DNA from: Vulcanimicrobiaceae bacterium
Lineage (GTDB): Bacteria > Vulcanimicrobiota > Vulcanimicrobiia > Vulcanimicrobiales > Vulcanimicrobiaceae
Reading direction: 5' to 3'
Length of the DNA: 18,956 nucleotides
NCBI GenBank assembly: GCA_046262595.1
Contig: JBHEMM010000036.1
Location: 5,885 to 24,840 of the forward strand
A model generated the notes under the pieces. The model did not search any database. It worked only from the letters and a program-made list of their open reading frames with translations, and was not told the DNA's origin. A program made the position numbers and the translations under genes. Of the stretch, positions 1 to 17,397 are shown one piece after another (within the stretch, counting starts at the first letter, position 1; every line of letters starts with the position of its first letter).

Positions 1-1
1 C

Positions 2-397
2 TTTAACGCACTGCGCCGCAACGCAGATTTCACGAGTCTGCTCGATCGTTTTGTGCAGGCGTATGTCAATACGCTCGGGCAGCTCGCCGCCTGCAACCGC
101 CTGCATAATGTGTACGAGCGGTGCGCGCGCTGGTTGCTCATGACGCAGGATCGCGTCGGCCTAGCCGACATCCGGCTGACGCACGAGTACTTGGCGATGA
201 TGCTGGGCACGCAGCGTTCGGGCGTGACGATCGCGGCGGCAACCCTGCAGCGCGCGGGCTTTATCCGTTATGGGCGCGGCGTCATTACGATCGTCGATCG
301 CGCCGGCTTAGAAGATGCCGCCTGCGAATGCTACGACGTGGCGCGCGCGCAATTCGGCGGCCTGCTGCAGCGCCCGCGCTTCGACACGCACCGCTAG
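2..397 (+). CDS. Crp/Fnr-family transcriptional regulator, C-terminal part (5' end outside window)
   Basis: Frame is open from base 2 (FNALRRNADFTSLLDRFVQAY...). Contains ACNRLH..ERCARWLL, the HTH_Crp segment LTHEYLAMMLGTQRSGVT, and C-terminal ACECY, typical of this Crp subfamily. Confidence 0.92.
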   Translation, partial: FNALRRNADFTSLLDRFVQAYVNTLGQLAACNRLHNVYERCARWLLMTQDRVGLADIRLTHEYLAMMLGTQRSGVTIAAATLQRAGFIRYGRGVITIVDRAGLEDAACECYDVARAQFGGLLQRPRFDTHR

Positions 398-401
398 AAC
401 A

Positions 402-698
402 CTAGTTTTCGTCGACGGCCTTTGCGGCGCTTTTGCCGGCGGTTGCGAACATATCCGCAAACTGCAGCGCGTACTCTTTGCGCATTTCAAGAAACTTGTT
501 GGCGTAGTCGAAGCTCATTTCGACGAACTTCGTCGGCGACGTGAGGTTCTCAAGCGACACTTTGTCCATCGCGGCAACTTCAGAGAAAAACTTCTGGGTC
601 TGCTCGGCAGCGGCAACGTTCAGGTCTTGCGCCTGCTTGACGGCGGCCAGCGTCTGCTCTTGGAACTGTTCGGCGAATTTCGTAAAATCAGTGGTCAT
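402..698 (-). CDS. Phasin-like PHA granule-associated protein (98 aa)
   Basis: Small Ala/Gln/Glu/Lys/Phe-rich protein with an amphipathic helical pattern and no TM segment. Last gene of the pha cluster, preceded by a near-consensus promoter. The CDS is well supported; phasin function is inferred from context and composition. Confidence 0.7.
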   Translation of the reverse strand: MTTDFTKFAEQFQEQTLAAVKQAQDLNVAAAEQTQKFFSEVAAMDKVSLENLTSPTKFVEMSFDYANKFLEMRKEYALQFADMFATAGKSAAKAVDEN

Positions 699-718
699 GC
701 GCTAAGTATACCTAGCGC
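699..718. promoter_or_regulatory. 20-bp palindromic operator, copy 1 (GCGCTAAG-TATA-CCTAGCGC)
   Basis: 18/20 self-complementary, overlaps the -10 box and abuts the phasin ATG. Related copy at 3532-3551. Confidence 0.75.
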
Positions 719-734
719 GCGCTATATCTGTCAA
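705..734 (-). promoter_or_regulatory. Sigma70-type promoter of the phasin-like gene, probably leaderless
   Basis: Minus strand reads TTGACA (734-729), 18 nt, TATACT (710-705), 6 nt, ATG (698). No Shine-Dalgarno. The -35 overlaps the TGA of the upstream regulator. Confidence 0.85.
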
Positions 735-1087
735 CCCCGATCGGTGAACCCCCGGTAGATTCGTATCAGCGTTTCTTTCTGGTCCGTGCTCAGATGCGGG
801 TCTAGGCGGACCGCCTGCTCGACGTTCTGGCCTGGAGGGGCCTTGGCGTCCTCGTCCAGCAGTCCGGCCTGCGCATACATCGTTTCGGCGGAAATCTGCA
901 GAGCGTTCGCGATATTTTTGAGCACGTCGGCGGAGGGCTTGTAGAGCCCCTTTTCCACCTGGCCCAAGTAGGGATTGGACACGTGCGAGATCTCGGCCAG
1001 CTGGCGCAGCGAGAGATTGGCGAGCTCGCGTTGGCTGCGGATGAACTCGCCCAGGGTTTTCCAGCCGCGGCTGCTGCTCTCGCTCAT
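731..1087 (-). CDS. XRE-family HTH transcriptional regulator, Rv0474/MLDSR-like (118 aa)
   Basis: LGEFIRSQRELANLSLRQLAEISHVSNPYLGQVEKGLYKPSADVL...ISAETMYAQAGLL...DPHLSTDQKETLIRIYRGF matches my recollection of the actinobacterial Rv0474 family along its length. ATG 1087 overlaps the phaC stop (ATGA). Confidence 0.88.
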   Translation of the reverse strand: MSESSSRGWKTLGEFIRSQRELANLSLRQLAEISHVSNPYLGQVEKGLYKPSADVLKNIANALQISAETMYAQAGLLDEDAKAPPGQNVEQAVRLDPHLSTDQKETLIRIYRGFTDRG

Positions 1088-2769
1088 GCGCGCACGTACG
1101 AACCCGGTGCCGGTTCGCCCTCGGGCAGACGGCACGGCGTGCCGAGCTCGCCGCCGCGTTCTTGCGCCCACAATGCCCAGTCGTTCCACCAGCTATCGCC
1201 CTCGCGTACTGCCGATGCGAACCACTCGTCCGCGCTCTGCTCGCGCAGCGCGCGTTCTTGGGTCCAGTGCTGGGATTTGGGATTGCCCGGCGGATTGCAG
1301 ATGCCCGCGACGTGTCCCGCGTTGGTCAGGGTGTACTTCACGTCGGTCGCGCCGACCAAGTTGACCGTGCGGTACGTCGACCGCCACGGCGCGATATGAT
1401 CCGCTTGCGCGCCGAGCACGTAGAGCGGCGTTTGAATCGTGCCCAAATCAATGGGCGTGTCGCTGATGACGAATGTGCCCGGCTGCGCGATCTGATTGTG
1501 CAGATAACACGCGCGCAAGTACTGGGAGTGCATTGCGGCGGGCATGCGCGTGGAATCGCTGTTCCACGTGAGGATGTCGAATGCCGGCGGATCCTTCCCC
1601 ATAAACCAGTTGCTCACGACGTAACTCCAAATCAAATCGTTCGCGCGCATCCAATCGAAGGTGCCGGCCATCTCGCTCGAGTCCAAAAAACCGCGCTCGT
1701 TCATGCGTTTTTCCAGCCGCGCGATCGTCGTTTCGTCGGTGAAGACGCCCAAGTCGCCGGGCTGCGAGAAATCGATGAGGGAGTTCGTGAGCGTCGCGCT
1801 GTTCACGCGCTCGCCTTGACCATGGGCCTGCAGATACGCGAGCATGATGAGCGTGAGCGTTCCGCCCAAACACAGCGCGGCGATGTTCGTTTTCTCGCTG
1901 CCGGTGATGTGTTCGACCTGTGTGAGCGCTTCGAGCAGGCCCAAGCGCAGATAATCGTCCATGAGGAAGCCGCGCATGCTCTCATCCGGATTGCGGTAGC
2001 TGATCATGAAGGTTTGGTGCCCGTGACGCACGGCCCACTCGACGAACGAACGGCCGGGCGCGAGATCCATGATGTAGTACTTATTGATCCAGGGCGGACT
2101 GCACAGCAGCGGAATCGCGTGCGTTTTGGCCGTCTGCGGTTCGTACGCGAGCAGTTCGATGAGCTCGTTCTTGAACACAACACGTCCCGGGGTGGCGGCG
2201 AGATTCACTCCCAACTTATGCTGACTCGTATCCACCTGGCGCGGCATGCCCCGGTTTTCTTTTGCGTCCTGCATGAAGTTCTGCATGCCGCGCATTAAGC
2301 TGGCACCGCCGGTACTCATCGCTTCTTTGACTACTGCAGGGTTCATCCACGGCACGTTGCTCGGCGCAAACGCGTCGTTGAGCATCTGCATGGCGAAGCG
2401 CGCTTTTCGTTTGGTGGCATCGGGCAAGCGCGAGGTTTCCACCAGCGACATGGCCGCGCGCGTGCGCGCCAAATACTCTTCGAGCACACCGGCCAGCATC
2501 GGGTTCTCGCGCCAGCCCGCATCCGCGAAACGCTTATCTTTAGCGGTATCGGCGCCGTTGCCGGCCGCCTCGACGCCCGAAAGGCGCTGCAGAAAGCGCA
2601 GCCCCGCCGCCTGCTGCTCGAGCATCAGCTGCGAGTACCACATCGCCATGCGTGCGGGATCGGCCATTGCATCACTCATGACGGCTTTGAGCGCATCGCC
2701 GAGCGAGGCGGGGTCGAGTCCCGTGACGTCCAAGCCGTATTGCAGATCTTCCGGTGACATCGTGCTCAT
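1084..2769 (-). CDS. phaC: Poly(3-hydroxyalkanoate) synthase, single-subunit class I/II-like (561 aa)
   Basis: Motifs DKRF, APSN, ATPGRVV, PPWINKYYIMDL, lipase-like box ALCLGG (Cys), DHIAPW (Asp), GHVAG (His), APGSYV. ATG 2769 overlaps the phaB stop (TAATG). Confidence 0.95.
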   Translation of the reverse strand: MSTMSPEDLQYGLDVTGLDPASLGDALKAVMSDAMADPARMAMWYSQLMLEQQAAGLRFLQRLSGVEAAGNGADTAKDKRFADAGWRENPMLAGVLEEYLARTRAAMSLVETSRLPDATKRKARFAMQMLNDAFAPSNVPWMNPAVVKEAMSTGGASLMRGMQNFMQDAKENRGMPRQVDTSQHKLGVNLAATPGRVVFKNELIELLAYEPQTAKTHAIPLLCSPPWINKYYIMDLAPGRSFVEWAVRHGHQTFMISYRNPDESMRGFLMDDYLRLGLLEALTQVEHITGSEKTNIAALCLGGTLTLIMLAYLQAHGQGERVNSATLTNSLIDFSQPGDLGVFTDETTIARLEKRMNERGFLDSSEMAGTFDWMRANDLIWSYVVSNWFMGKDPPAFDILTWNSDSTRMPAAMHSQYLRACYLHNQIAQPGTFVISDTPIDLGTIQTPLYVLGAQADHIAPWRSTYRTVNLVGATDVKYTLTNAGHVAGICNPPGNPKSQHWTQERALREQSADEWFASAVREGDSWWNDWALWAQERGGELGTPCRLPEGEPAPGSYVRA

Positions 2770-3530
2770 TACATGTACATCCCGCCGTTGACGTTGTAGA
2801 CCGAACCCGTGATATAGCCGCTGTTCTCGTCGATAAGGAAACGCACCATGCGCGCGATCTCTTGCGGCGTTCCCAAACGCTGAACCGGCGTGCGCGCGGT
2901 TGCGGCCGCGATCGCCTGCTGCGGCATTGCCGCAACCATCTCCGTATTGATGAAGCCGGGGGCAACGGCATTGACGGTGATGCCTTTCGCCGCCATTTCG
3001 AGCGCGACGGTCTTCGTCAAACCGATGAGGCCCGCTTTCGCCGCCGAGTAATTCGACTGCCCCACGTTGCCGGAAAGTCCCACGACCGAGCTGATGTTCA
3101 CGATGCGCCCGTACCCTTGCGCGATCATCGGCTCGATGACCGCCTTGGTCATGAAGAACGGCCCCGAGAGATCGACCTGAAGCACCGCGTTCCATTCCTC
3201 AATGGTCATCTTCCGCAGCGTGTGATCCATCGTAATGCCGGCGTTGTTCACGAGAAAATCGATGCGCCCATGCTCCTTGACGATCGCCTCCACCGCTGCC
3301 GCACAGCGGTCGTACTCGCCCACGTTCCCTTCATAGAAAAGCACGTTCTGCGCGCTGCCGTTCAACGACGCGCGCAAGGTTTCGGTGCGTTCGCGATCGG
3401 CGGGCAGGCCGAGCACGGCCACCTTCGCGCCATCGCCCGCCAGGACGCTGGTAATCGCCGCGCCGATTCCGCGTGCCCCGCCCGTCACGATTCCGGCGCG
3501 GCCTGCAAGAGAAGTGGTAACAGTTGTCAT
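2769..3530 (-). CDS. phaB: Acetoacetyl-CoA reductase (SDR), phaC-proximal copy (253 aa)
   Basis: TGGARGIG, NNAGI, NISS, YSAAK, PGFINTEM, C-terminal NGGMYM typical of PhaB; translationally coupled to phaC. ATG 3530 preferred over GTG 3551 on promoter geometry. Confidence 0.88.
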   Translation of the reverse strand: MTTVTTSLAGRAGIVTGGARGIGAAITSVLAGDGAKVAVLGLPADRERTETLRASLNGSAQNVLFYEGNVGEYDRCAAAVEAIVKEHGRIDFLVNNAGITMDHTLRKMTIEEWNAVLQVDLSGPFFMTKAVIEPMIAQGYGRIVNISSVVGLSGNVGQSNYSAAKAGLIGLTKTVALEMAAKGITVNAVAPGFINTEMVAAMPQQAIAAATARTPVQRLGTPQEIARMVRFLIDENSGYITGSVYNVNGGMYM

Positions 3531-3531
3531 G

Positions 3532-3551
3532 GTGCTAGGCTTACCTAGCAC
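3532..3551. promoter_or_regulatory. 20-bp palindromic operator, copy 2 (GTGCTAGG-CTTA-CCTAGCAC)
   Basis: Perfect 8-bp inverted repeat with a 4-nt spacer, 1 nt from the phaB ATG. Arms are closely similar and the spacer length is identical to 699-718. Confidence 0.75.
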
Positions 3552-3567
3552 GGGCTGCGCTTCCTTT
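3539..3567 (-). promoter_or_regulatory. Putative alternative-sigma promoter AAAGG-N18-GTAAGC, 8 nt before ATG 3530
   Basis: Same geometry as the elements at 7979-8007 and 17361-17389. Confidence 0.5.
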
Positions 3568-3571
3568 GCGG

Positions 3572-4312
3572 CTACATATCCAGTCCGCCGTTAACCGTGT
3601 AAACGGCGCCGGTGATATAAGCAGACTCGTCCTCGAGCAAAAACTTCACGACGCGGGCGACTTCATGCGGGTTGCCCAAGCGCTTTTGCGGAATGCGCGA
3701 GACCACTTTTTCCAGCGCCGCTTCGGGGATGGCTTGCACCATCTCGGTCGCGATGAAGCCCGGCGCAACGCAGTTGACCGTGATGCCCTTTGTCGCCGTC
3801 TCGAGCGCAAGCGATTTTGAAAAGCCGAACAAACCGGCCTTCGAGGCCGCGTAGTTCGCCTGGCCCACGTTGCCCGTCTCGCCGATCACCGAACTGATGT
3901 TGACGATGCGGCCGCTTCCGCGCGCGATCATGTGCTCGAGCACCGCTTTGGTCATCGCGAACGCGCCGAACAGGTTGACGTTGAGCACCTTGTGCCAATC
4001 GTCGGGCGACATTTTGCGCACCGTTTTGTCGAGCGTGATGCCGGCATTGTTCACCAAGTAATCCACGCGGCCGTGCGCTTCAAGCACTTCGTTCACCACG
4101 CGCACGCAATCGGCCGCATCGTCGACGCGCCCTTGATGCACGCTTACCGTACCGCCCGCGCGGTGCAGCTCGCCTTGCAGCTTTTCTGCACCCTCTCTGT
4201 TGCGGCTGTATCCGGCGGCCACCGTAACGCCGTCACGCGCCAGCGAGGCGGTGATCGCGCCGCCGATACCGCGCGTTCCGCCCGTGACGAGTGCGACTCT
4301 CTGCTCAATCAT
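3572..4312 (-). CDS. phaB: Acetoacetyl-CoA reductase (SDR), distal copy (246 aa)
   Basis: MIEQRVALVTGGTRGIG, NNAGI, YAASK, PGFIATEM, C-terminal NGGLDM. AAGGCGG precedes ATG 4312. Confidence 0.88.
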   Translation of the reverse strand: MIEQRVALVTGGTRGIGGAITASLARDGVTVAAGYSRNREGAEKLQGELHRAGGTVSVHQGRVDDAADCVRVVNEVLEAHGRVDYLVNNAGITLDKTVRKMSPDDWHKVLNVNLFGAFAMTKAVLEHMIARGSGRIVNISSVIGETGNVGQANYAASKAGLFGFSKSLALETATKGITVNCVAPGFIATEMVQAIPEAALEKVVSRIPQKRLGNPHEVARVVKFLLEDESAYITGAVYTVNGGLDM

Positions 4313-5333: not shown

Positions 5334-5576
5334 ATGCGAGCCCTTATCATGTTTCTCCTCATTACGGCACTTGCGTACGGCGCTTTGACCGCATACGCCG
5401 GGTTCCGGGTCGCGCGGGGTATCGGTGATGCCAAAGCGCGCAGCGCCATAACCCGCGTTGCAGCCCGGATGATGGGCCGCGACGCACTTGAGAAAGTGGC
5501 GATCCGGCGCGGCCGCGTGCCGGGCTGGATCACGCAATCGCCCGCCTTTTGGTGGTCGCTGCGCTCTTACGAATAA
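5334..5576 (+). CDS. Small protein with N-terminal hydrophobic anchor or signal (80 aa)
   Basis: MRALIMFLLITALAYGALTAYAGFR is one hydrophobic helix followed by a basic tail. Alternative ATG at 5307. Confidence 0.55.
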   Translation: MRALIMFLLITALAYGALTAYAGFRVARGIGDAKARSAITRVAARMMGRDALEKVAIRRGRVPGWITQSPAFWWSLRSYE

Positions 5577-7627
5577 CCACCCGCAACCAGCGCTACGTCG
5601 ATTACGGTAAGCACAAAAGTTCGCCCGTCGTTGTAACCGAGCGGCTCGCGATTGTTGCGGAACCGCCCGACGCGCCGGGCGTTCCCGCACCCAACGCGCA
5701 AGCCGGAACCTGGGCACGCTTTTTGCATAGCGGCTTGGCGCCGCTCGAACGCGCCGGCTGGACGGTCGAAATCGATCCCAGCGTACGCGACGTCGTGCTG
5801 GATCTGAGCGCGGACGCATCGCCGTGGGAAGCGCGCTTCGAATCGCAAGGCGCCGACTGGTTCGATCTCGATCTCGGTGTGGAAACGGGCGGCGAGCGCG
5901 TTCCACTGCTGCCGCTCGTCGTGGATATTCTGCGAAACATGCGCAACGGCGAGCTGCCTTCGGGCGAGGTCACCTATGCGATGCTGGGCGATCGTGCATT
6001 CGTGCTGCCAATGGAACGCATCCGCGGTATGCTGCGCACACTCGTCGAACTGCTCGAAGATGCCAAACTGAACGCGCTCGGCCGCATCGCGCTCAATAAA
6101 CTGGCCGCGCTCGAGATCGCGCAGAGCGTCGATCAGATCGAGGCGCAAGGTGAAAGCGCGCTCGCGCTGCGCGATCTCGCGCAGCGCCTCTCAACGTTTC
6201 AAGGCGTTGCCGACGTGCCCGTGCCGCCGTTATTGCGTGCGACACTGCGCGGCTACCAAACCGAAGGCTTCCGCTGGCTGCAGTTTCTGCGCGAATACGA
6301 GTGCGGCGGTATCCTGGCCGACGACATGGGGCTGGGAAAAAGCGTCCAAGCCATCGCGCACCTGCTGCACGAACGCGATCGCGCGCAGCGGCGGCCCTCG
6401 CTGCTCGTTGTTCCTACCAGCCTCGTGCCGAACTGGCTCGCGGAGATCGAACGTTTTGCGCCGGCGCTGCGCGTGGTCACCATGCACGGGCCGCAGCGTG
6501 CGCGCCTGACCGCAAGCATTGCATCGGCGGATTTGGTGATCACGACCTATGCACTGCTCTCGCGCGATCGCATTTTTCTGGACCGCGAATGGCACATTGC
6601 TATCCTCGATGAAGCGCAAGCCATTAAAAACGCGCAGTCCAAAGTTGCGCGCACCGCCCGCAAACTGCGCGCGCGCCAACGCTTGTGCCTGACCGGCACG
6701 CCGATGGAAAACCACTTGGGCGAGCTGTGGTCGCTCTTCGACTTCGTCATGCCGGGCGCGCTGTACGATCAGCGCCGGTTTGCGCAGCTGTTCCGCACGC
6801 CGATCGAACAGGGGCAATCCGCCGAACGCCGCGAGGTGCTCGCGCGCCGCATTCGCCCGTTCGTTCTGCGCCGCACCAAGGCCGGCGTTGCCATGGAGCT
6901 GCCCGCCAAAACGGAGATCGTCGAACGCGTCGAACTGGCCGACGATCAGCGCGATCTGTACGACTCGGTGCGTTTAGCGGTGAACGAAGAAGTGCGCGCC
7001 GAGATCGCGCGCTTAGGAATAGCGCGCAGCCGCATCGCGGTACTCGATGCGCTGCTCAAACTGCGCCAAGTCTGTTGCGATCCGCGCTTGGTAAAGCTGG
7101 CGAGCGCGCGGCGAGCGAAGTCGAGCGCGAAGCTGGAATGGCTGATCGATACGCTCACGCAACTTGCTGCGGAAAACCGGCGCACGCTGGTCTTCTCGCA
7201 ATTCACCAGCATGATCGACCTCATCAAACCCGAGCTCGATCGGTCGGGTCTGGCGTACGTGGAACTCGTCGGCTCGACGGTGGATCGGGCGACGCCGGTG
7301 CGCCGTTTTCAAGCGGGCGAAGTGCCGGTGTTCCTGATCAGTCTGCGCGCAGGCGGCACCGGCCTGAATCTGACCGCGGCGGACACCGTGATTCATTACG
7401 ATCCGTGGTGGAATCCGGCCGTGGAGCGCCAAGCCACCGATCGCGCGCACCGCATCGGTCAAGAAAAGCCGGTGTTCGTTTATAAACTCGTCGCGGCCGG
7501 GACGGTAGAAGAGAAGATCCTCGAGCTGCAAGCACGCAAGGCGCATATCGCCGGTGCGCTGTTCGATGCGGCCGATACGGCGAGCATCGACTTGCAGCCC
7601 GAGGACCTTGAAGCGCTGCTTACGTGA
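5549..7627 (+). CDS. SNF2/SWI2-family helicase-like ATPase (start uncertain)
   Basis: Motif I LADDMGLGKS, Ia VVPTSL, II DEAQ, III LTGTP, IV FSQF, V SLRAGGTGLNL, VI QATDRAHRIGQ. Confidence 0.95.
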   Translation: MVVAALLRITTRNQRYVDYGKHKSSPVVVTERLAIVAEPPDAPGVPAPNAQAGTWARFLHSGLAPLERAGWTVEIDPSVRDVVLDLSADASPWEARFESQGADWFDLDLGVETGGERVPLLPLVVDILRNMRNGELPSGEVTYAMLGDRAFVLPMERIRGMLRTLVELLEDAKLNALGRIALNKLAALEIAQSVDQIEAQGESALALRDLAQRLSTFQGVADVPVPPLLRATLRGYQTEGFRWLQFLREYECGGILADDMGLGKSVQAIAHLLHERDRAQRRPSLLVVPTSLVPNWLAEIERFAPALRVVTMHGPQRARLTASIASADLVITTYALLSRDRIFLDREWHIAILDEAQAIKNAQSKVARTARKLRARQRLCLTGTPMENHLGELWSLFDFVMPGALYDQRRFAQLFRTPIEQGQSAERREVLARRIRPFVLRRTKAGVAMELPAKTEIVERVELADDQRDLYDSVRLAVNEEVRAEIARLGIARSRIAVLDALLKLRQVCCDPRLVKLASARRAKSSAKLEWLIDTLTQLAAENRRTLVFSQFTSMIDLIKPELDRSGLAYVELVGSTVDRATPVRRFQAGEVPVFLISLRAGGTGLNLTAADTVIHYDPWWNPAVERQATDRAHRIGQEKPVFVYKLVAAGTVEEKILELQARKAHIAGALFDAADTASIDLQPEDLEALLT

Positions 7628-7923: not shown

Positions 7924-7951
7924 GCTTGCCTATACCCATCCTGTAACCCTT
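7924..7951 (-). promoter_or_regulatory. Putative alternative-sigma promoter AAGG-N18-GCAAGC of the GlsB-family gene
   Basis: Same two-box spacing as the other copies; here followed by a leader carrying an SD. Confidence 0.4.
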
Positions 7952-7978
7952 GTGCCACGTTTTCCGCCGCGTTAACCC

Positions 7979-8007
7979 AAAGGTCGCTTGCGGATGGGGC
8001 GCCAAAC
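7979..8007 (+). promoter_or_regulatory. Putative alternative-sigma promoter AAAGG-N18-CCAAAC, 8 nt before ATG 8016
   Basis: No SD before ATG 8016; geometry identical to 3539-3567 and 17361-17389. Confidence 0.5.
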
Positions 8008-8015
8008 CGCACGCC

Positions 8016-11000
8016 ATGACGGCTCGTTTTGCAGCGTTTTGTTGTGCCATTGCGATGGCTTTACCGATGGTTTCGCGAGGCGCCGAAATGCCTGCGCAGT
8101 GGCGCAGCGTGGGCCCGTTTATCGGCGGACGCGTCGTGGCGGTCGCCGGCGTTCCCGGGCGCAATCTCTTCTATATGGGCGGAGTGGACGCGGGCGTTTG
8201 GGAAAGCGCCGACTACGGCATCCGCTGGACCAACATCTCCGACGGGAAGATCGCTCCGGGCGCAAACAGCATCGGCGCGCTGGCCGTCGCGCCTTCCGAT
8301 GCGAACGTCATTTACGCCGGAACCGGCGAGGGCGACCCGCGCGGCACGATGATCACGGGTGAGGGCGTCTATAAATCGCTCGATGCCGGCAAGACGTGGC
8401 AATACGCGGGTCTGCGCGACACGCACAGCGTGGGATCGATCGCCATCGATCCGCGCGACGCCAACGTCGTCTATGTTTCCTCGCTCGGTCACGTCTTTGC
8501 CGACAACGCCGATCGCGGCGTCTTTAAAACCACGGACGGCGGAAAGACCTGGAGCAAAGTGCTTTATGTCGACGCGGCGACCGGTGCCAACAATGTCGTT
8601 ATCGATCCGCAGCAGCCAAACGTGCTGTACGCGACGATGTGGCAGATGTACCGGCGTCCGTGGAAGCTTTCCAGCGGCGGCCCGGGCAGCGGGCTGTATA
8701 AATCGGTCGACGCGGGCGCGCACTGGACGAAAATTTCGCTCCATCCGGGGTTCGCGCGCGGTTTGCTCGGAAAAATGGGCGTTGCGGTCTCGGCCAGCGA
8801 TTCCCATGTCGTCTACGCCGTCGTGCAAGCCAAGGACGGCGGGGTGTTTCGTTCGGCCGACGCGGGCGCGACATGGACGCGCGTGAACGAGGAACAGAAG
8901 CTGCGCCAGCGCGCGTTCTATTACATGTCGCTTGTGGTGGATCCGAAAAACCCGGACACGGTATATGCGCCGCAAGTGGACGGCTTGCTGGTTTCGCGCG
9001 ACGCCGGAAAACTGTGGACGCGTCTGCGTCCGCCGCACGGCGACAATCACATCGTGTGGGTCGACCCGCAGAACACGCAAGTGCTGCTGGAAGGCAACGA
9101 CGGCGGCGCAACGGTTTCGACCGACGGCGGAAAAACGTGGAGTCCGCAGCACAATCAGCCCACGGGACAGTTCTATCACGTCGCGCTCGACCGGCGCTTT
9201 CCGTTCCACATCTACGGCGCGCAGCAAGATGAAGGCTCCATCGAAGGCCCGAGCGCATCGTCGCAAGGCGGCATCACCGGCGATCTGTGGCACAATGTGG
9301 CGTACGGCGAGAGCACATTCGTCGCACCCCAGCCGGGCAACGCCGACGTAACGTACGGCAGCGGCTACTTCAGCATCTTCCTGCGTTACGACGAGCGCAC
9401 CGGCGAATACAGCAGCGTGAGCCCGCTGCCCTATTATCAGGAAGGCGCATCATCGGCGGAGCTGCGCTACCGCTTTGCGTGGACGCATCCGATTCTGTTC
9501 TCGCCGGTCAATCGCAAAGAGCTGCTCGCGGGGGCGCAGTACGTGCTGAGCAGCACCGATTACGGCAAAACGTGGCGGCGTTTGAGCGGCGACCTGACGC
9601 GCAACGACCCCAAGACCGAAGGCCCGACCGGCGGTCCGATCGAGAAAGACCAAACCAGCGCCGAAGTCTATCCGTACGTCTCCGCGCTCGCCGTGTCACC
9701 GTTGAACGGCCGTCTGCTGTGGGCCGGTTCGTCGGACGGGCTGGTGCACGTGAGCACCGATCACGGCGCGCATTGGCGCGCGATCACGCCGCCGGGGCTG
9801 CCGCAATACGCGGAGATCAGTTCCATCGAACCCTCGCATACCGCCCAAGGCACCGCCTATCTTACCGCGCAGCGCTACATGTGGGACGACTTCCGCCCGT
9901 ACGTGTATCGCACGCGCGACTTCGGCGCGCATTGGGAATCCATCGGCAGCGGCTTGCCCGCGGATCAGTACGCGTTCAAAATCGCGCAAGATCCGCGTTC
10001 GCCTCATCTGCTTTTGCTGGGCACGCGCGAAACGGTGTACGCGACGTACGACGACGGCGCGCGCTGGCAGCCGCTCACGCTGAATCTTCCGGGCGTCCAA
10101 GTGCGCGACATCGCCTTCGATACGCGCCAAGGCCAAGTGGCCATCGCAACGCACGGCCGAGCGTTTTGGGTGCTGGACGACCTGAGGTACTTCGAACAGC
10201 TCGCCGCGGCGAGCTCGAGCAGCGGCGCGCATCTGTTCGCGCCCGAAACGGCTTGGCTCACGCACTCATACGGCGGCAGCAGCTATCCGCGTCCGGACAC
10301 CGGCACAAATCCGCCGTTCGGCGCGACGATTTTTTTCCGTATTCCGCGAAGTTACAACGGCACTCAGCCCGCGACGCTGACGATCGCCGATGCGAACAAC
10401 CGCGTGGTCAACCGCTTTCAACTGCACGCCAAAGGCGCAGCGGTAAGCGCAGCACAGCGCGAACAGATGACGCCCAACCAACTGCGCGCGCTTGGGCAAG
10501 AACAAGCCACGACGATTGCCGCCGGAACGAACAAGTTTCAGTGGGATCTGCGCTACCCTTATGCCACCGACGTCACCGGGTTTTTCGTGCCGGCAGCCGC
10601 AGGCGGTGAAGAAGACACGATTCAAGGGCCGCAAGTGCTGCCCGGGCGCTACACCGCGGTGCTCACGTACGCCGGAACGACGGCGCGCGCGCCGTTCACC
10701 GTTGCGCTCGATCCGAATCTGCATCCCGGCGCCGGCGCGCTAGGCGCGCAGTTCGGTCTGCTTATGCGTATTCACGAGACGCTCAATGTGATGGACGAGC
10801 TGCTCAACAAAGCCATCGCGGCGCGCGATCGCCTGCGCGGCGGCGCGCAGCGCAGTGCACTCGACCGCGCGATCGATGCGCTCGTGAACCTGCAGAGCCA
10901 GTCCAGCGAAGGTCCGCTGCTCACCGGCACGCGGGTGCGGGACCATCTGGCGTATCTGATCTCCGACATCGAATTCACCTACAACAAACCGACCGCCGCC

Positions 11001-11075
11001 CAATACGCGGTTTACAGCCAACTCCGCGCCGCCGCCGCTCGCGGCGAATCACATTTGCGATCGTTGCTCAAGTAA
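8016..11075 (+). CDS. Secreted BNR/Asp-box (VPS10/sortilin-like) beta-propeller protein, putative glycosyl hydrolase, copy 1 (1019 aa)
   Basis: Signal peptide-like MTARFAAFCCAIAMALPMVSRGA, then WRSVGPFIGGRV, about 11 S/T-x-D-x-G-x-x-W Asp boxes, ATHGRAFWVLDD, and a C-terminal WDLRY...PGRYT module with helical tail. Confidence 0.9.
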   Translation: MTARFAAFCCAIAMALPMVSRGAEMPAQWRSVGPFIGGRVVAVAGVPGRNLFYMGGVDAGVWESADYGIRWTNISDGKIAPGANSIGALAVAPSDANVIYAGTGEGDPRGTMITGEGVYKSLDAGKTWQYAGLRDTHSVGSIAIDPRDANVVYVSSLGHVFADNADRGVFKTTDGGKTWSKVLYVDAATGANNVVIDPQQPNVLYATMWQMYRRPWKLSSGGPGSGLYKSVDAGAHWTKISLHPGFARGLLGKMGVAVSASDSHVVYAVVQAKDGGVFRSADAGATWTRVNEEQKLRQRAFYYMSLVVDPKNPDTVYAPQVDGLLVSRDAGKLWTRLRPPHGDNHIVWVDPQNTQVLLEGNDGGATVSTDGGKTWSPQHNQPTGQFYHVALDRRFPFHIYGAQQDEGSIEGPSASSQGGITGDLWHNVAYGESTFVAPQPGNADVTYGSGYFSIFLRYDERTGEYSSVSPLPYYQEGASSAELRYRFAWTHPILFSPVNRKELLAGAQYVLSSTDYGKTWRRLSGDLTRNDPKTEGPTGGPIEKDQTSAEVYPYVSALAVSPLNGRLLWAGSSDGLVHVSTDHGAHWRAITPPGLPQYAEISSIEPSHTAQGTAYLTAQRYMWDDFRPYVYRTRDFGAHWESIGSGLPADQYAFKIAQDPRSPHLLLLGTRETVYATYDDGARWQPLTLNLPGVQVRDIAFDTRQGQVAIATHGRAFWVLDDLRYFEQLAAASSSSGAHLFAPETAWLTHSYGGSSYPRPDTGTNPPFGATIFFRIPRSYNGTQPATLTIADANNRVVNRFQLHAKGAAVSAAQREQMTPNQLRALGQEQATTIAAGTNKFQWDLRYPYATDVTGFFVPAAAGGEEDTIQGPQVLPGRYTAVLTYAGTTARAPFTVALDPNLHPGAGALGAQFGLLMRIHETLNVMDELLNKAIAARDRLRGGAQRSALDRAIDALVNLQSQSSEGPLLTGTRVRDHLAYLISDIEFTYNKPTAAQYAVYSQLRAAAARGESHLRSLLK

Positions 11076-11097: not shown

Positions 11098-14000
11098 GTG
11101 AACCGAATTGCCGCCCTGACCCTGTGCGCCGTGTTCCTGGTGCTGCCGCTGGGCACGCACGCCGCCGCGACGCAAACCCCCGCGCAACCGCCCACCGCGC
11201 AGCAGCTGATGAGCAAACTGCAGTGGCGCAACATCGGCCCGTTCATCGGCGGGCGCGTCGTGGCGCTCGCCGGCGTTCCAAGCAACCCGGATTTGTTTTA
11301 CATGGGCGGCGTCCAAGGCGGCATTTGGCGCAGCACCAACTATGGCCAGAACTGGGAAAACATCAGCGACGGCGGGCTCGGTATGAACGGTTACAGCATC
11401 GGCGCTCTTGCGGTCGCGCCCTCGAATCCTAAAGTGATCTACGCCGGCACCGGTGAAGCCGACGTGCGCGGCGATTTTTCGACGGGCGACGGCGTGTATA
11501 AAACCACCGACGCCGGTAAAACGTGGCACTACGCCGGCTTGCGCGACACGCATGAAACCACGACGATCGCAATCGATCCGCGCAATGCCGACGTCGCGTA
11601 CGTCAGCTCGCTCGGCCACGTGTTCGCGCCCAATCCCGAACGCGGCATCTTCAAAACCACGGACGGCGGCAAGACGTGGAGCAAAGTGCTGTACGTGGAC
11701 GAGAAAACCGGCGGCGTTGCCGTCATCGTCGATCCGCATTCGCCGCAGAATGTGTATGCGTCGATGTGGCAAGTGCAGCGGCGCCCGTGGAACCTCACCA
11801 GCGGCGGCCCGGGAAGCGCACTGTACAAGTCGAGCGACGGCGGCGCGCACTGGTCGAAGATCTCCGATAATCCGGGCTTCGCGCGCGGCGTGCTGGGCAA
11901 GATGGGCATCACGCTCTCGGCCGCAAACCCGCGCGTCATTCTGGCCATCGTGCAAGCCAAAGAAGGCGGCGTCTTCCGCTCGGCCGACGGCGGCGCGACA
12001 TGGAAGCGCGTAAACAGCGAAATGAAGCTGCGCCAGCGCGCCTTCTACTACATGGGCATCTACGCGGACCCGACCAATGCGAACGTCGCCTACGCGCCGC
12101 AAGTGGACGGCGTGTTCAAAACCACGAACGGCGGGCGCACGTGGAAAGCCGTCACGCCGCCGGGCGATCATCACATCATCTGGATCAATCCGCGCAATCC
12201 GAAGATACTGCTCGAAGGCGACGACGGCGGCGCCACCGTTTCGGTGGACGGCGGCAAGACGTGGAGCACCGAACTCAATCAGCCGACGAGCCAATATTAC
12301 CGCATCGCGATCGATCACCAATTTCCGTTCCACGTGTACGGCGCCGCGCAGGATCAGGGCGCATGGGAAGGCCCGAGCGCATCCAACGAAGGCTTGACCT
12401 TGGGCGCCTGGCACAACGTCGCGCTGGGTGAGAGCACGTGGGTTGCGCCGGAGCCGGGCAACGCGAACGTGACGTTCGGCAGCGGCTATCAAAGCTCGAT
12501 GGCGCGCCTGGACACCTCGACCGGCGAAGAGAAGAACGTCAGCCCGTGGCCGGAGTATCAATCGGGGAACTCCTCGGCGGAAGCGCGGTACCGTTTCGGC
12601 TGGACCCATCCGATCTTTTTCTCGCCCTCCAAACCGCACGAACTGCTGGTCGGCGGCAACGTCGTGTTCAAGAGTGACGACTACGGCACGCATTGGGAGA
12701 AGATCAGCCCGGATCTCACCCGCAACGATCCCACGACCGAAGGCCCGAGCGGCGGTCCGATCGATCTTGATCAGACGGGCGTCGAAACGTTCCCCGATCT
12801 CTCCGCGCTCGCCGTCTCGCCGCTGAGCGCAAACCTGATGTGGGCGGGCTCCGCCGACGGCTTGGTGCACGTGACGACGGACGCAGGTGCGAATTGGAAG
12901 CTGGTCACGCCGCCCGAGCTGCCGCAATGGGCGCAGATCAGCAACATCGAGCCGTCGCATTTCGATAAAGGCACGGCGTATCTGACGGCGTCGCGCTATC
13001 AATGGGATGACTTTCACCCGTACGTTTACAAGACAACGGATTTCGGCGCGCATTGGAGCGCCATGTCGTCGGGCATTCCCGAGGATCAGTACGTGTTTGC
13101 GGTGCGCCAGGATCCGCGCGACGCGCGGGTGCTGCTTGCCGGAACGCGCAGCACCATCTATGTGAGTCTTGACGGCGGCGGCAAATGGCAGCCGCTCACC
13201 CTGAACCTTCCATACGTGCAAGTGCGCGACATCGCTATCGATGCGCGTCAGGGCGACATCGCGGTTGCAACCCACGGCCGCTCCTTCTGGGTGCTCGATA
13301 ATCTCAAACTGATCGAACAACTCGCGGATAACGACGCGCAAAACGCAGGCGCCGGCTCCCCTGCGCTCTTCGCACCGGAAACGGCGTGGCTCTCACACGC
13401 CTACGGCGCGAGCCCGTATCCGATTCCCAATCTGGGGCAGAATCCGCAGTACGGCACAGCGGTGTTCTTCAATGTGCCGCAAAGCTATACCAATGCGACG
13501 GCCGCGACGCTTTCGTTTGTGGATGGCAACGGGCGCACCGTGCGCAGTTTTAAACTGCATCTGCGCAACAAGAAAGAGAAAAAGCCCACGCCGGCGCACC
13601 TTGAAGCAATGGACCAGGTGCAGCTTATGGCGCGCGCGCTGCACGAGACCACCGCAATCGATCGCGGTATGAACGTGTTCCAATGGGATATGCGTTACCC
13701 GCCGGCGGCGGAAGCGAACGGCGCGCATGCGTTCGGCACCGACGACTTCGGCGACACCACCAACGGGCCGACGATCGTTCCCGGCAAGTACACGGTCGTG
13801 CTGAGTTACGACGGCAAAACGCTGCGGCGGCCGTTCCGCGTGGCGCTCGATCCGCGCCTGCATCCCGGCGCGGGCGCCCTGCAGGCGCGCCTCTCGCTCG
13901 CGATGCGCATTCACAATACGCTCGACCGCCTCAACCGGACGGTGAATGCTGCGCTCGCCGCACGTTCGCGCGTTGCACCGGAGAAACGCGCGCAGCTTCA

Positions 14001-14211
14001 AGCCGCAATCGATGAGGCGGTGCAACTCGACGTGCACTCCAGCGAAGGCGACTTGCTGCACGAGAGCAAGCTGCGCGATCACCTTGCGTTCCTGATGAAC
14101 TCGCTCGATATGGCCTATCAGGCACCCACGCCGGCGGAGGAAGCGACGTTCAACGATCTCAACGCGGAGGCGACGGCGACGATAGCGCGGCTGAATGCGC
14201 TGATGCGGTAA
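11098..14211 (+). CDS. Secreted BNR/Asp-box (VPS10/sortilin-like) beta-propeller protein, putative glycosyl hydrolase, copy 2 (1037 aa)
   Basis: SD AAAAGGA before GTG 11098; signal peptide ending THA-A; colinear full-length paralog of copy 1. Confidence 0.92.
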   Translation: MNRIAALTLCAVFLVLPLGTHAAATQTPAQPPTAQQLMSKLQWRNIGPFIGGRVVALAGVPSNPDLFYMGGVQGGIWRSTNYGQNWENISDGGLGMNGYSIGALAVAPSNPKVIYAGTGEADVRGDFSTGDGVYKTTDAGKTWHYAGLRDTHETTTIAIDPRNADVAYVSSLGHVFAPNPERGIFKTTDGGKTWSKVLYVDEKTGGVAVIVDPHSPQNVYASMWQVQRRPWNLTSGGPGSALYKSSDGGAHWSKISDNPGFARGVLGKMGITLSAANPRVILAIVQAKEGGVFRSADGGATWKRVNSEMKLRQRAFYYMGIYADPTNANVAYAPQVDGVFKTTNGGRTWKAVTPPGDHHIIWINPRNPKILLEGDDGGATVSVDGGKTWSTELNQPTSQYYRIAIDHQFPFHVYGAAQDQGAWEGPSASNEGLTLGAWHNVALGESTWVAPEPGNANVTFGSGYQSSMARLDTSTGEEKNVSPWPEYQSGNSSAEARYRFGWTHPIFFSPSKPHELLVGGNVVFKSDDYGTHWEKISPDLTRNDPTTEGPSGGPIDLDQTGVETFPDLSALAVSPLSANLMWAGSADGLVHVTTDAGANWKLVTPPELPQWAQISNIEPSHFDKGTAYLTASRYQWDDFHPYVYKTTDFGAHWSAMSSGIPEDQYVFAVRQDPRDARVLLAGTRSTIYVSLDGGGKWQPLTLNLPYVQVRDIAIDARQGDIAVATHGRSFWVLDNLKLIEQLADNDAQNAGAGSPALFAPETAWLSHAYGASPYPIPNLGQNPQYGTAVFFNVPQSYTNATAATLSFVDGNGRTVRSFKLHLRNKKEKKPTPAHLEAMDQVQLMARALHETTAIDRGMNVFQWDMRYPPAAEANGAHAFGTDDFGDTTNGPTIVPGKYTVVLSYDGKTLRRPFRVALDPRLHPGAGALQARLSLAMRIHNTLDRLNRTVNAALAARSRVAPEKRAQLQAAIDEAVQLDVHSSEGDLLHESKLRDHLAFLMNSLDMAYQAPTPAEEATFNDLNAEATATIARLNALMR

Positions 14212-14215
14212 GCAG

Positions 14216-15757
14216 CTAACCTACGGTGTGTGCGGGAATGGTTCCTCGACGTGTCCGGTCTTGGCGCGGAACCCCTTCAAGGACGGCGCGCGCATGACTG
14301 CCGCCGTTGGGGCGCTGCGCCACGGCAAACTCCTTTGTCAGACTTGAGACGATGAACAAGCCGCGTCCGCGTTCGCTCAGCACGTTGTCGGGAAGTCTTG
14401 GGGTATGGCGGAAGCCCGGTCCGCCGTCCAGCACGTGAAGCACGGGACGCTCGGCCTTCCATTCGAGCGTAATGTCGGCCCACCGCGGCGCGTACCGTAC
14501 GACATTGCCGACCAGTTCGCCGAACACCACTTCCGCCGCCGCGCGTTCCGCGCGCGCTACGCCGCCCTTTTCCAACTCGCCTAAAAATTCCGCGCGCACG
14601 GCCGCCGCCATGTCGGCATCGCTGACGTCGAACGACCAATGCAGCAAGCGCTCCGAGCGTTCGACATGCCAGACCGTCATCACGGCGACGTCGTCGCGCG
14701 CGCCGTCTTTGAGCACCGCATCGTGAATCGCCAGCGCCACGTTCGGCGCCTCGAGCACGTCTTGGTTCATCACTGCTTTGCGTAGCCGCTCTTCGCCCGC
14801 AAGCATATCTCGCGTTGCCTCGGTCAAGCCGTCGGTATACAGCACGAGCAGCGAGCCGACCGGCATGCTGATGCTTTGCACGCTGCGCGGAATGTGAAAC
14901 GGAACGCCGAGCGGCGCTCCTTCGGCGAGAAGTTCCTGCAGCGTTCCGTCCGCTAAACGCAGGACGGGCCGCGGGTGCCCGGCCGTCGCATACGTAAGCA
15001 CACTGCTCGCCGGATCGAACAGGCCCACGAACGCGGTCACCAGGGCTTGCGGATCTTCGGCTTGCAGCGCGCGATCGGCGGCATCGAGCATCGTCGAAGG
15101 ATCGTCGTGGACTTGCGCGACGCCGCGCACCAGTTGGCGCACGTTCGCCATTGCAACGGCCGCGTCCAATCCGGAACCGCACACATCGCCGATGGAGAGC
15201 ATCACACGCCCGTCGGCAAGCTGCAGCGCGTCGTACCAATCGCCTCCGATCTGGCTTTCGTCCATGCCCGGGCGGTAAAACGAACTGAACGTCAAGCCGG
15301 GAATCTGGGGCAGGGAACGCGGCAGCGCGGCTTTCTGAAAACGCTGCGCGACGCGGCGCTCGTGCTTGTACGCGCTCGAAACGCTGCGCAGCTTCAGCGA
15401 GAGCCGGCGCGCTTTGATCAAGCTCTCGACGCGGGCGCGCATCTCGACCTTTGAGAGCGGGCGCAGCACGACGTCGTCAACGACGGCCCAGAGCTCGTTG
15501 GTCATGTACGTGATGCTGCGCCGGTCGCTGAGCAGCAGAACCGGCAGCATCACCGGTTCGATGATGCTGCGTTCGAGCGAAAGGCGCTGTGCATTCGCCT
15601 TCAAACACGAGCCGTCCAGAATCACCAGATCGGGTTCGGGCGGGGCCTCGCTTTCTTCATCGGGGAACGCGAACAGCACCTCGTACTGCGGCACGAGGAG
15701 TTGCGCGAGCAAGGTGCGGTTCTCGCGGTTCGAAAGCAGGATGAGGACGCGCTCCAC
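14216..15757 (-). CDS. Atypical receiver + SpoIIE/PP2C phosphatase + RsbW-like HATPase fusion protein (513 aa)
   Basis: REC-like N-terminus (RVLILL, DLVILDG, PVLLLS, DDVVLRP). PP2C motifs GGDWYD, GDVCG, LYTDG, RDD. HATPase boxes ELVGN, DGGPG, GRGLFIV. GTG 15757 lies 1 nt after the upstream stop. Confidence 0.9.
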   Translation of the reverse strand: MERVLILLSNRENRTLLAQLLVPQYEVLFAFPDEESEAPPEPDLVILDGSCLKANAQRLSLERSIIEPVMLPVLLLSDRRSITYMTNELWAVVDDVVLRPLSKVEMRARVESLIKARRLSLKLRSVSSAYKHERRVAQRFQKAALPRSLPQIPGLTFSSFYRPGMDESQIGGDWYDALQLADGRVMLSIGDVCGSGLDAAVAMANVRQLVRGVAQVHDDPSTMLDAADRALQAEDPQALVTAFVGLFDPASSVLTYATAGHPRPVLRLADGTLQELLAEGAPLGVPFHIPRSVQSISMPVGSLLVLYTDGLTEATRDMLAGEERLRKAVMNQDVLEAPNVALAIHDAVLKDGARDDVAVMTVWHVERSERLLHWSFDVSDADMAAAVRAEFLGELEKGGVARAERAAAEVVFGELVGNVVRYAPRWADITLEWKAERPVLHVLDGGPGFRHTPRLPDNVLSERGRGLFIVSSLTKEFAVAQRPNGGSHARAVLEGVPRQDRTRRGTIPAHTVG

Positions 15758-15758
15758 G

Positions 15759-17225
15759 TCAGAGGGCGCCCTCGCGCACCCGCGGCGCATTTCCGAACAT
15801 GCCGTTGAAATCGACAACCGGATCGCCGACGATGATGCCGTCCGAACGCAATTCGAACCGGTGAATGCACTTGTCGAAATCGCTCAACCGCTTCTTGAGC
15901 ACGCCGATGACCCGCCCGATCTGTGCGTGCGCGCTGTTGTGTTCCTCGATGTAGCGCATGAACAGCACGTTGTCCGCCAGATAGCTCACGCCGACCTCGG
16001 AGACCCGGAAATCGTCCAAATGCAGCGCTTCGTTCACCAGCAGCAGCGTGACGCCGACGTTCTGCAGATAGCGCCCCAGCGCGTGCAGGCGTTCGTTGAG
16101 ATCGTCGCCGCGCATCGAGAGCTTGTAGCCGCTGATGCTGTCGATCATCACAATGCGGGTTCCATTATCTTCAACGTCTTTGCGTACTAAGTTGGCGAAC
16201 TCGTCGCCTGAAAATTGCAGCGCTTCGATGGCGGTGACGCTGAGGGTTCCGGCCTTGCACATTTCTTCGACCGGGATGCCGACCTGTTCGCAGCGGCGCA
16301 GCAGCGTGGACTTGGGCTCATCAAACGTGTAGGCCGCGCTGCGCTCGCCGCGTGCCGCGGCTTCTTTGACGAATTGCATGCCGACGGTCGTCTTGCCGAC
16401 GCCGCTGGGCCCAGTGAGCAGCGTGATGGTTCCGCGCTCAATGCCGCCGTTCATCATGGCGTCCAGCGCCGGCAAACCCCACGAGAGCACCTCGAGTTTG
16501 AACTCGCTACCGTACCTTGCGGGAATGAGCCGCGGATAGACCACGGCACCGCGTTCGGACAGACGCAGCGTGTGCTCTCCGCCGCGGTAATCGGATCCCC
16601 GGAACTTGGTAATGCGCAGCGTGCGGTGCCGGTCTTCGGGAAGCAGCTCCACGACGCCGTCGCACAAGAAGCGCAAGTCGTCGTCAGGCGCCTCCGCGCT
16701 GGATTCGGCCGTAATCAGAATGCAGCCGCCGCCGGTCAAGAGATACCGCAGAAGGGAGAGCGTCTGGCGACGGAACTCTGGCGGATCTTTGGCCAAATAC
16801 CGCAGCGAGGTCATCGAATCGATGAACACGCGCCGCGGCTTCGCTTGCGTGACTGCTTCGATGATCGCCTCGGTCGTGGGGCCCAGCTCCACTTCGGCGG
16901 CGCTAAAAATGTCGTAGCTTTGAATCTTTTCGAACGTGTCCGACGAGGGGCTCAAGTCGCAGAACGTCACGCCGCCAGTCTCGAAACCCATCGCCGCTGC
17001 ATTCGCGCGCAGTTCCGCTTCGGGTTCACCGAACGTGATGAACATGACGGGCTCGCCCTGCGCCGCGCCGGCGGTCAGAAAATGCCAACCCAGGGTCGTT
17101 TTCCCGCCGCCCGGCGGACCGGTCAGGAGATAGGTCCGTCCGCCGATGAGCCCACCGTTCAACACTTCGTCGAATCCGGGCACACCGGTCCCTACCCGTG
17201 GTTGCCGCCTGCCGTTTGTGCTCAC
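15759..17225 (-). CDS. KaiC-like (KaiC/GvpD/RAD55 superfamily) double RecA-domain ATPase (about 488 aa)
   Basis: TGVPGFDEVLNGG, Walker A GPPGGGKT and GPSGVGKT, Walker B VFIDS and VMIDS, KFRGS, SYLADN, KKR. GGAG precedes GTG 17225; alternative ATG at 17246. Confidence 0.92.
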   Translation of the reverse strand: MSTNGRRQPRVGTGVPGFDEVLNGGLIGGRTYLLTGPPGGGKTTLGWHFLTAGAAQGEPVMFITFGEPEAELRANAAAMGFETGGVTFCDLSPSSDTFEKIQSYDIFSAAEVELGPTTEAIIEAVTQAKPRRVFIDSMTSLRYLAKDPPEFRRQTLSLLRYLLTGGGCILITAESSAEAPDDDLRFLCDGVVELLPEDRHRTLRITKFRGSDYRGGEHTLRLSERGAVVYPRLIPARYGSEFKLEVLSWGLPALDAMMNGGIERGTITLLTGPSGVGKTTVGMQFVKEAAARGERSAAYTFDEPKSTLLRRCEQVGIPVEEMCKAGTLSVTAIEALQFSGDEFANLVRKDVEDNGTRIVMIDSISGYKLSMRGDDLNERLHALGRYLQNVGVTLLLVNEALHLDDFRVSEVGVSYLADNVLFMRYIEEHNSAHAQIGRVIGVLKKRLSDFDKCIHRFELRSDGIIVGDPVVDFNGMFGNAPRVREGAL

Positions 17226-17360
17226 CGTTTGTTCTCTCCGCGTCATAAGGAAGCGAGGTACTGGTTCCCTTTTTGAGGCGGGAATAAAACACCGATCGCC
17301 AGCGGAGCACGCACAGAATACCAGCGCGTGCGCATGGACGCGGGGGTTGCGACAAAGGCA

Positions 17361-17389
17361 AAAGGACGGGTGCGGCATTGGGGCCAAGC
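17361..17389 (+). promoter_or_regulatory. Putative alternative-sigma promoter AAAGG-N18-CCAAGC, 8 nt before ATG 17398
   Basis: No SD before ATG 17398; same geometry as the other copies. Confidence 0.5.
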
Positions 17390-17397
17390 GCGCAGAA

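Follow-up and report, generated by a model that had tools for sequence, protein, structure and literature searches.

The 18,956-nucleotide stretch analysed here (the window; contig JBHEMM010000036.1, assembly GCA_046262595.1, a Vulcanimicrobiaceae bacterium) carries a cluster of polyhydroxyalkanoate (PHA) genes together with a gene for an XRE-family regulator and a small phasin-like gene, which this regulator very probably controls through a palindromic operator. All lie on the minus strand, in the order phaB1, phaB2-phaC-XRE and then the phasin-like gene (Table 1). A preliminary description of this DNA had noted TAATG and ATGA couplings followed by a phasin-like gene, and these were confirmed in the sequence: TAATG is the phaB2/phaC overlap and ATGA the phaC/XRE overlap. 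Its phaB-phaC-XRE unit holds as phaB2-phaC-XRE; the range contains two reductase genes, however, and phaB1 is not coupled to phaB2 but separated from it by a 41-bp gap with a palindrome inside. It had overlooked two features, the promoter that the phasin-like gene has of its own and the two operator-like palindromes.

TIGR01829 was the top-scoring model for both reductases, which fell slightly below its cut-off. For PhaC, the top NCBIfam model was the class I synthase TIGR01838 (550 bits, cut-off 622.65), and the catalytic-type residues C300, D457 and H486 were all found. By its sequence, the phaC product thus has the features of a class I PHA synthase (PhaC_N, a single large subunit and a Cys-Asp-His triad) and is a divergent member of that class, as its TIGR01838 score is below the cut-off. 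Four thiolase-family genes are present in the same genome, on other contigs.

Table 1. Genes and putative control elements of the PHA locus, with positions in the window
Feature	Position	Strand	Evidence or remark
Phasin-like gene, 98 aa (amino acids), two long amphipathic helices, likely granule coat	402-698	-	Phasin_2 E 0.016, below cut-off
Operator-like palindrome 1, GCGCTAGG-TATA-CTTAGCGC (minus strand), 20 bp	699-718		Centred on -10 box of phasin promoter
Sigma-70-type promoter of phasin-like gene, TTGACA-18-TATACT	705-734	-	11/12 match
XRE-family regulator, 118 aa	731-1087	-	HTH_3 E 4e-13; 45% identity to R. jostii MLDSR; tree; seven-helix model
phaC, class I-like PHA synthase, 561 aa	1084-2769	-	PF07167 E 4e-57
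phaB2, acetoacetyl-CoA reductase-like SDR (short-chain dehydrogenase/reductase), 253 aa	2769-3530	-	TIGR01829 281.3 bits, cut-off 302.1
Operator-like palindrome 2, GTGCTAGG-TAAG-CCTAGCAC (minus strand), 20 bp	3532-3551		Directly before phaB2 ATG
phaB1, acetoacetyl-CoA reductase-like SDR, 246 aa	3572-4312	-	TIGR01829 297.7 bits, cut-off 302.1; no operator upstream

The XRE stop codon falls within the -35 box of the phasin promoter. Having a promoter of its own, the phasin-like gene need not be co-transcribed with XRE. Its ATG lies 6 nt past the -10 box, so the mRNA is likely to be leaderless. When a matrix built from 111 sites of other loci was run over the 2.4-Mb genome, palindromes 1 and 2 were the two top sites, with 28.5 and 25.3 bits, and the next site had 18.4 bits. 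This third site lies where a ribosomal-protein-S15-like gene ends; it has no -35 box and was rejected as an operator. Palindrome 2 equals motif 1 of MLDSR, the lipid-droplet regulator of Rhodococcus jostii, at 14 of 20 bases (by eye), and both window palindromes appear to be putative operators of the MLDSR-box type at target promoters. Palindrome 2 likely marks an internal promoter from which phaB2-phaC-XRE would be transcribed. In most loci (window 3562-3567; L126-L136, L168, L172 and L175), a conserved A[A]GG[AG] element takes the place of TTGACA at the -35 position of this promoter (L137 has TTGACG), and where the element is present the phaB2 ATG lies 2-4 nt past the palindrome; this promoter perhaps uses an alternative sigma factor and yields a leaderless mRNA.

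The layout of the phasin promoter is shared by 43 loci. As these were selected by pattern, their promoter logo is circular at the fixed positions, and held-out metagenome loci served as the independent test. Here, the phasin-like gene was sought by profile in 80 loci and found in 56, and every one of these 56 genes had a site at most 130 nt upstream. In the controls, a site preceded none of 32 phaB1 genes and occurred in 57 of 3142 tiles overall. In several loci a second site covers the -35 box, reminiscent of the two motifs of MLDSR. The arms of the palindrome reappear around different centres upstream of phaB2 and of actinomycete XRE genes. The site also stays with the phasin-like gene where XRE is on a different contig (G114, G029, G053 and G121). 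Among 251 genomes of the window's phylum, the exact pattern was present in 93 (reversed control, 0), all of them XRE-positive, and in none of the 27 genomes with phaC but without XRE. The tallies of XRE, operator and linkage in this phylum include the unpublished genomes G128, G213, G246 and G248, on which no conclusion rests.

XRE itself was found in 123 of the 251 genomes, only in two families, and 122 of these 123 have a PhaC match. As the preliminary description had expected, linkage to phaC is conserved in relatives: phaC lies directly upstream of XRE in 107 genomes, elsewhere in 12 and is unlisted in 4. In one genus phaC is elsewhere, yet phaB1, XRE, the operator and the phasin-like gene remain together, which marks regulator, operator and phasin-like gene as a fixed unit. 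The reported lack of phaR in the window extends to the genome (89.7% complete), where PF07879 and PF05233 had no match (a control was matched in Caulobacter); neither matched the window XRE. The PhaR N-domain was likewise found in none of the 178 genomes of the two carrier families (0/160 and 0/18), in none of 251 actinomycete genomes, and in 6 genomes of other families. The window XRE thus likely stands in for PhaR. The phasin-like family was not found in five tested phaC-positive, XRE-negative genomes and was matched in 4/4 XRE-positive controls. Most of the genomes with phaC and without XRE (L162-L164; the 27 above) belong to relatives whose PhaC is of a second type (~40% identical) and which have no operator; their family also has no PhaR match, so granule control there is explained neither by XRE nor by PhaR. 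A cultured member of the phylum has Nile-red-positive inclusions and PHA genes (PMC9758169).

The similarity of the window XRE (P0001) to R. jostii MLDSR extends over 110 amino acids (45% identity, E 7e-32), and the two are reciprocal best hits in their genomes, with next hits at E 1.5e-5 and 0.17. The R. jostii homologue is MLDSR, because it contains both antibody peptides of PMC5504291. Searching GTDB with the 20-bp motif 1 given in the supplement of that paper returned 84 loci, in 79 of which a homologue of the window XRE adjoins the motif. In a quick 50-row tree (no outgroup, short alignment), window-type and MLDSR-type copies, grouped beforehand by rank and neighbours, split at a Shimodaira-Hasegawa-like approximate likelihood ratio (SH-aLRT) of 99; a quick 110-row tree with distant outgroups left the base unresolved and the relative age of the subfamilies undecided. 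The frameshifted XRE of L284 and the short L303 were omitted from the tree. The mycobacterial members of the 50-row tree are homologues from L069 and L100, not Rv0474 itself, and they group in the MLDSR clade apart from the window XRE. The proposed MLDSR/Rv0474-like regulator is therefore correct as to family and too narrow as to clade: judged by these alignments, the window XRE falls within the MLDSR family in the broad sense, but in a sister subfamily, and is not an MLDSR orthologue.

The recognition helix is nearly identical in both subfamilies (S-N-P-Y-L-x-Q-x-E-x-G kept), whereas the wing residue after it, Y49 in the window XRE, is Y/H in 58/58 window-type and R in 46/46 MLDSR-type copies. 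At the turn, all 46 MLDSR-type copies have G, where the majority of window-type copies carry K, N, E, Q or H. The inner operator base is G in 46/53 actinomycete and 55/70 metagenome window-type sites, and C in MLDSR motif 1; the wing residue may set this base. The aligned span of MLDSR (20-125) includes the 25-126 stretch of the published truncations. The window XRE has no cysteine and, in its sequence and seven-helix model, no separate ligand domain; the closest solved folds are those of ClgR, DdrO and SinR. At one locus (L153, G122:C4) a divergent XRE copy (49%) lies opposite a 39%-identical phaC and clusters with phaC-linked actinomycete copies, possibly a separate acquisition.

The phasin-like protein (P0002) was modelled as two helices, H2-43 and H55-97, at a predicted local distance difference test (pLDDT) score of 80. 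Its hydrophobic moment was equalled by 1 of 500 shuffles, and 36/42 relatives were amphipathic above the 95th percentile of shuffles; going by the model, the 98-aa protein has the small, all-helical, amphipathic character of phasins. Phasin_2 (PF09361) was matched by 31/42 relatives at E <= 0.05 (best 4.6e-6) and the next family by only 2. The alignment of the family omits a truncated copy (L005) and a near-duplicate (L030), and its profile recovered 737 proteins at E <= 0.001 among 50% representatives. Of the Atlas clusters with a name, the closest relate to PHA; they are leads under 0.9. Fold searches with the model gave no Foldseek match and otherwise generic coiled coils only (Z ~6), no solved relative was found by profile, and long helices are uninformative in such searches. 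Homology to MLDS/TadA/HBHA was rejected (HHalign probability 1.8%, E 0.027, 35 columns). Together, the weak family matches, the amphipathy and the genomic context make a role as granule coat very probable. The preliminary description had proposed a 'regulator then granule-coat gene' module wired to PHA; the order and an MLDSR-like operator are indeed there, but the coat is not detectably related to MLDS/HBHA and the module is not PHA-specific, as its distribution in actinomycetes shows.

There, at least one XRE homologue occurs in 108 of 251 genomes and two occur in 31, both subfamilies being present in the latter (all these genomes come from the same phylum as G254, which belongs to Acidimicrobiales and hence to Actinomycetota; the tallies include the unpublished G256, G303 and G343, and no conclusion rests on these). 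Among 57 loci picked by rank, 33 hold window-type and 24 MLDSR-type copies. A phasin-like homologue adjoins 32/33 of the former, often with two flanking sites, and 0/24 of the latter, and phaC lies beside 9/33 window-type loci. The relaxed operator was not found near most MLDSR-type second copies. In four actinomycete genomes (L043, L054, L079 and L104), small helical genes with weak Apolipoprotein or Phasin (PF05597) matches and no XRE nearby are preceded by an exact copy of MLDSR motif 1, which suggests a dispersed MLDSR regulon with several coat types in these genomes.

We propose a model, to which we give a probability of about 65%, where XRE binds the palindrome, represses the phasin-like gene and is titrated onto nascent PHA granules. 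An XRE oligomer on the -10 box would block the strong coat-gene promoter; nascent granules would then draw XRE off the DNA and free the promoter, such that the coat is made as granules appear. Through palindrome 2, phaB2-phaC-XRE, and hence XRE itself, would in this genome come under the same control, forming an autoregulatory loop. The parts of the model differ in strength. Binding of the operator and control of the phasin-like gene are highly probable from the conserved pattern, and the position of the palindrome over the -10 box makes repression likely. Titration by the granule is a reasonable expectation by analogy with MLDSR, the one such case, where deletion of helix 2 or of helix 6 abolishes localisation to droplets and binding of the protein to adiposomes competes with its binding to DNA (PMC5504291). 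The proposed regulon of phasin and phaC fits the operator at the phasin-like promoter and, since the phaB2-phaC operator is lineage-restricted (3/13 held-out loci), the conserved target predicted from sequence is the coat gene and not phaC.

Several observations weigh against this model. The phasin-like protein scores 15.9 bits against Phasin_2, below the cut-off of 24.9. The exact operator pattern is missing from 30 of the 123 XRE-positive genomes (variants are present in those examined), and besides the held-out loci the phaB2 operator is also patchy in the genomes (11/24 examined loci with phaB2). MLDSR activates as well as represses (PMC5504291), so the sign of the regulation by XRE is uncertain. 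In actinomycetes, 24/33 carriers have no PhaC_N match (the genomes are incomplete); the module is therefore not PHA-specific, and the subfamily must have some signal besides PHA. Moreover, the palindrome is mostly degenerate in the nine phaC-linked actinomycete loci. Finally, the genome counts ignore kinship: relatives are not independent, and the counts are patterns rather than statistics.

Conceivably, although we consider it unlikely, the coat gene is under the control of XRE bound to the palindrome, but what XRE senses is something other than the granule surface (an acyl-CoA, a metal or cleavage). In favour of this, the nearest folds, ClgR, DdrO and SinR, are those of regulators controlled in other ways, and the window-type subfamily is present in genomes with and without phaC. 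In addition, the mycobacterial family member Rv0474 is described as copper-responsive (PMC10961391, PMC10884836). However, the closest tested relative, MLDSR, is titrated by droplets (PMC5504291), the window XRE offers neither a cysteine nor a separate ligand domain, and MSMEG_0918 of Mycobacterium smegmatis likewise has no copper motif (PMC10884836, PMC10961391). A hydrophobic inclusion may also exist in both groups of genomes: wax ester synthase/diacylglycerol acyltransferase (WS/DGAT) was found in 5/5 tested phaC-less carriers, a weak indication since it is common in Actinomycetota.

Less probable still is a role of the small helical protein other than that of a granule coat, either as an anti-repressor- or antitoxin-like partner of XRE or at membrane surfaces in general, the pair then simply travelling with PHA genes. 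Its Phasin_2 score below the cut-off, the many actinomycete carriers without phaC and the rarity of WS/DGAT inside the locus (2/33 actinomycete loci) would all be explained in this way, whereas the preference of 31/42 members for Phasin_2 over any other family, the PHA-related nearest Atlas clusters, the amphipathy of 36/42 members, the near-consensus promoter, as expected of an abundant coat, and the position next to phaC in two phyla all speak for a coat. It is most improbable that the conserved DNA is merely a strong promoter (-35 plus extended -10) and that XRE acts elsewhere. The -10 box does form the centre of the palindrome, and TTGACA is conserved to the same degree; conservation nevertheless runs symmetrically past the -10 box, the same arms recur around other centres before phaB2 and actinomycete XRE genes, the exact site was never found without XRE in the window's phylum and it resembles the tested operator of the homologue MLDSR.

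With respect to the inclusion served, WS/DGAT had no match in the window's genome, while the family was matched in other genomes tested, and PHA is the only candidate inclusion found in this genome. One phaC-less actinomycete carrier had a weak 26% PhaC-like match. An acetyl-CoA-synthetase-like gene (by eye) adjoins the module in 7/23 phaC-less actinomycete loci, L259 and L254 among them. The regulator-coat cassette likely serves storage inclusions in general. We tentatively extend this to a broader reading, which we hold to be somewhat doubtful: the MLDSR family would be a general sensor of carbon-storage inclusions with two paralogues, whose distinct operators are switched by one wing residue, and its undescribed branch would drive an unnamed phasin family and serve two kinds of inclusion, PHA granules in Eremiobacterota and in a number of actinomycetes, neutral-lipid droplets in those actinomycetes that have no phaC. 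If so, one regulator-coat cassette would join both kinds of storage body.

Among known systems, MLDSR-MLDS of R. jostii (PMC5504291) is alike in its homologous XRE with a near-identical recognition helix, in its related 20-bp palindrome and in the order of a regulator followed by an amphipathic inclusion-coat gene. It differs in belonging to a separate paralogous subfamily, with R as the wing residue (Y/H for the window) and C as the inner operator base (mostly G for the window type); moreover, the coat of the window is Phasin_2-like, has its own promoter and is linked to phaB/phaC, in a genome without a WS/DGAT match. In the available text of PMC5504291, MLDSR homologues are described from actinobacteria only. 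Rv0474 and MSMEG_0918 of mycobacteria are described as autorepressors (PMC10961391, PMC10884836), and MSMEG_0918 adjoins the HBHA homologue MSMEG_0919 by locus numbers; they differ in that the mycobacterial homologues (L069 and L100) group with MLDSR and not with the window XRE. PhaR-PhaP of Cupriavidus and relatives (PMC9049629) has the same predicted logic, with a repressor of the phasin promoter that represses itself and is released by PHA, but the window regulator has an XRE fold and no PF07879 or PF05233 domain. Phasin control independent of PhaR is known from Bacillus PhaQ, haloarchaeal AbrB-like PhaR and Pseudomonas PhaD (PMC9049629, in whose available parts XRE is unmentioned). PhaQ of Bacillus (Priestia) megaterium and the haloarchaeal PhaR are also lineage-specific non-PhaR repressors beside a phasin gene, but come from other protein families and place regulator and phasin under one promoter (PMC9049629). 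H16_B1672 of Ralstonia eutropha, an XRE-family protein likened to the window XRE by description only, binds and weakly represses a phasin promoter, but is auxiliary to PhaR (PMC11332829). In the literature searched, with subscription papers mostly outside, we found no description of the present system or of a link between this XRE family and PHA.

If the model is true, a granule regulator and a coat are supplied for a whole PHA-bearing lineage without PhaR, together with a defined 20-bp operator. The XRE solution would join those based on PhaR, PhaQ, AbrB-like and TetR-like proteins and, being borrowed from lipid-droplet biology, would open to testing the logic that PHA granules share with lipid droplets. 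With its compact operator, the 118-aa repressor could be a PHA-responsive switch orthogonal to PhaR.

Around the PHA locus, the 3' part of a Crp-family regulator gene (window 1-397, plus strand; HTH_Crp_2 E 2e-15) converges on the phasin-like gene, from which it is separated by 4 nt. An SNF2-like helicase open reading frame (by eye) lies at 5549-7627 (plus strand), followed by two tandem genes for secreted-looking proteins of ~1040 aa (7950-11075 and 11098-14211, plus strand) with repeated GGxTW motifs, glycosyl-hydrolase/VPS10-like by eye. On the minus strand, 14216-17651 holds a KaiC-like ATPase gene and then a receiver/PP2C phosphatase/kinase-like gene (by eye).

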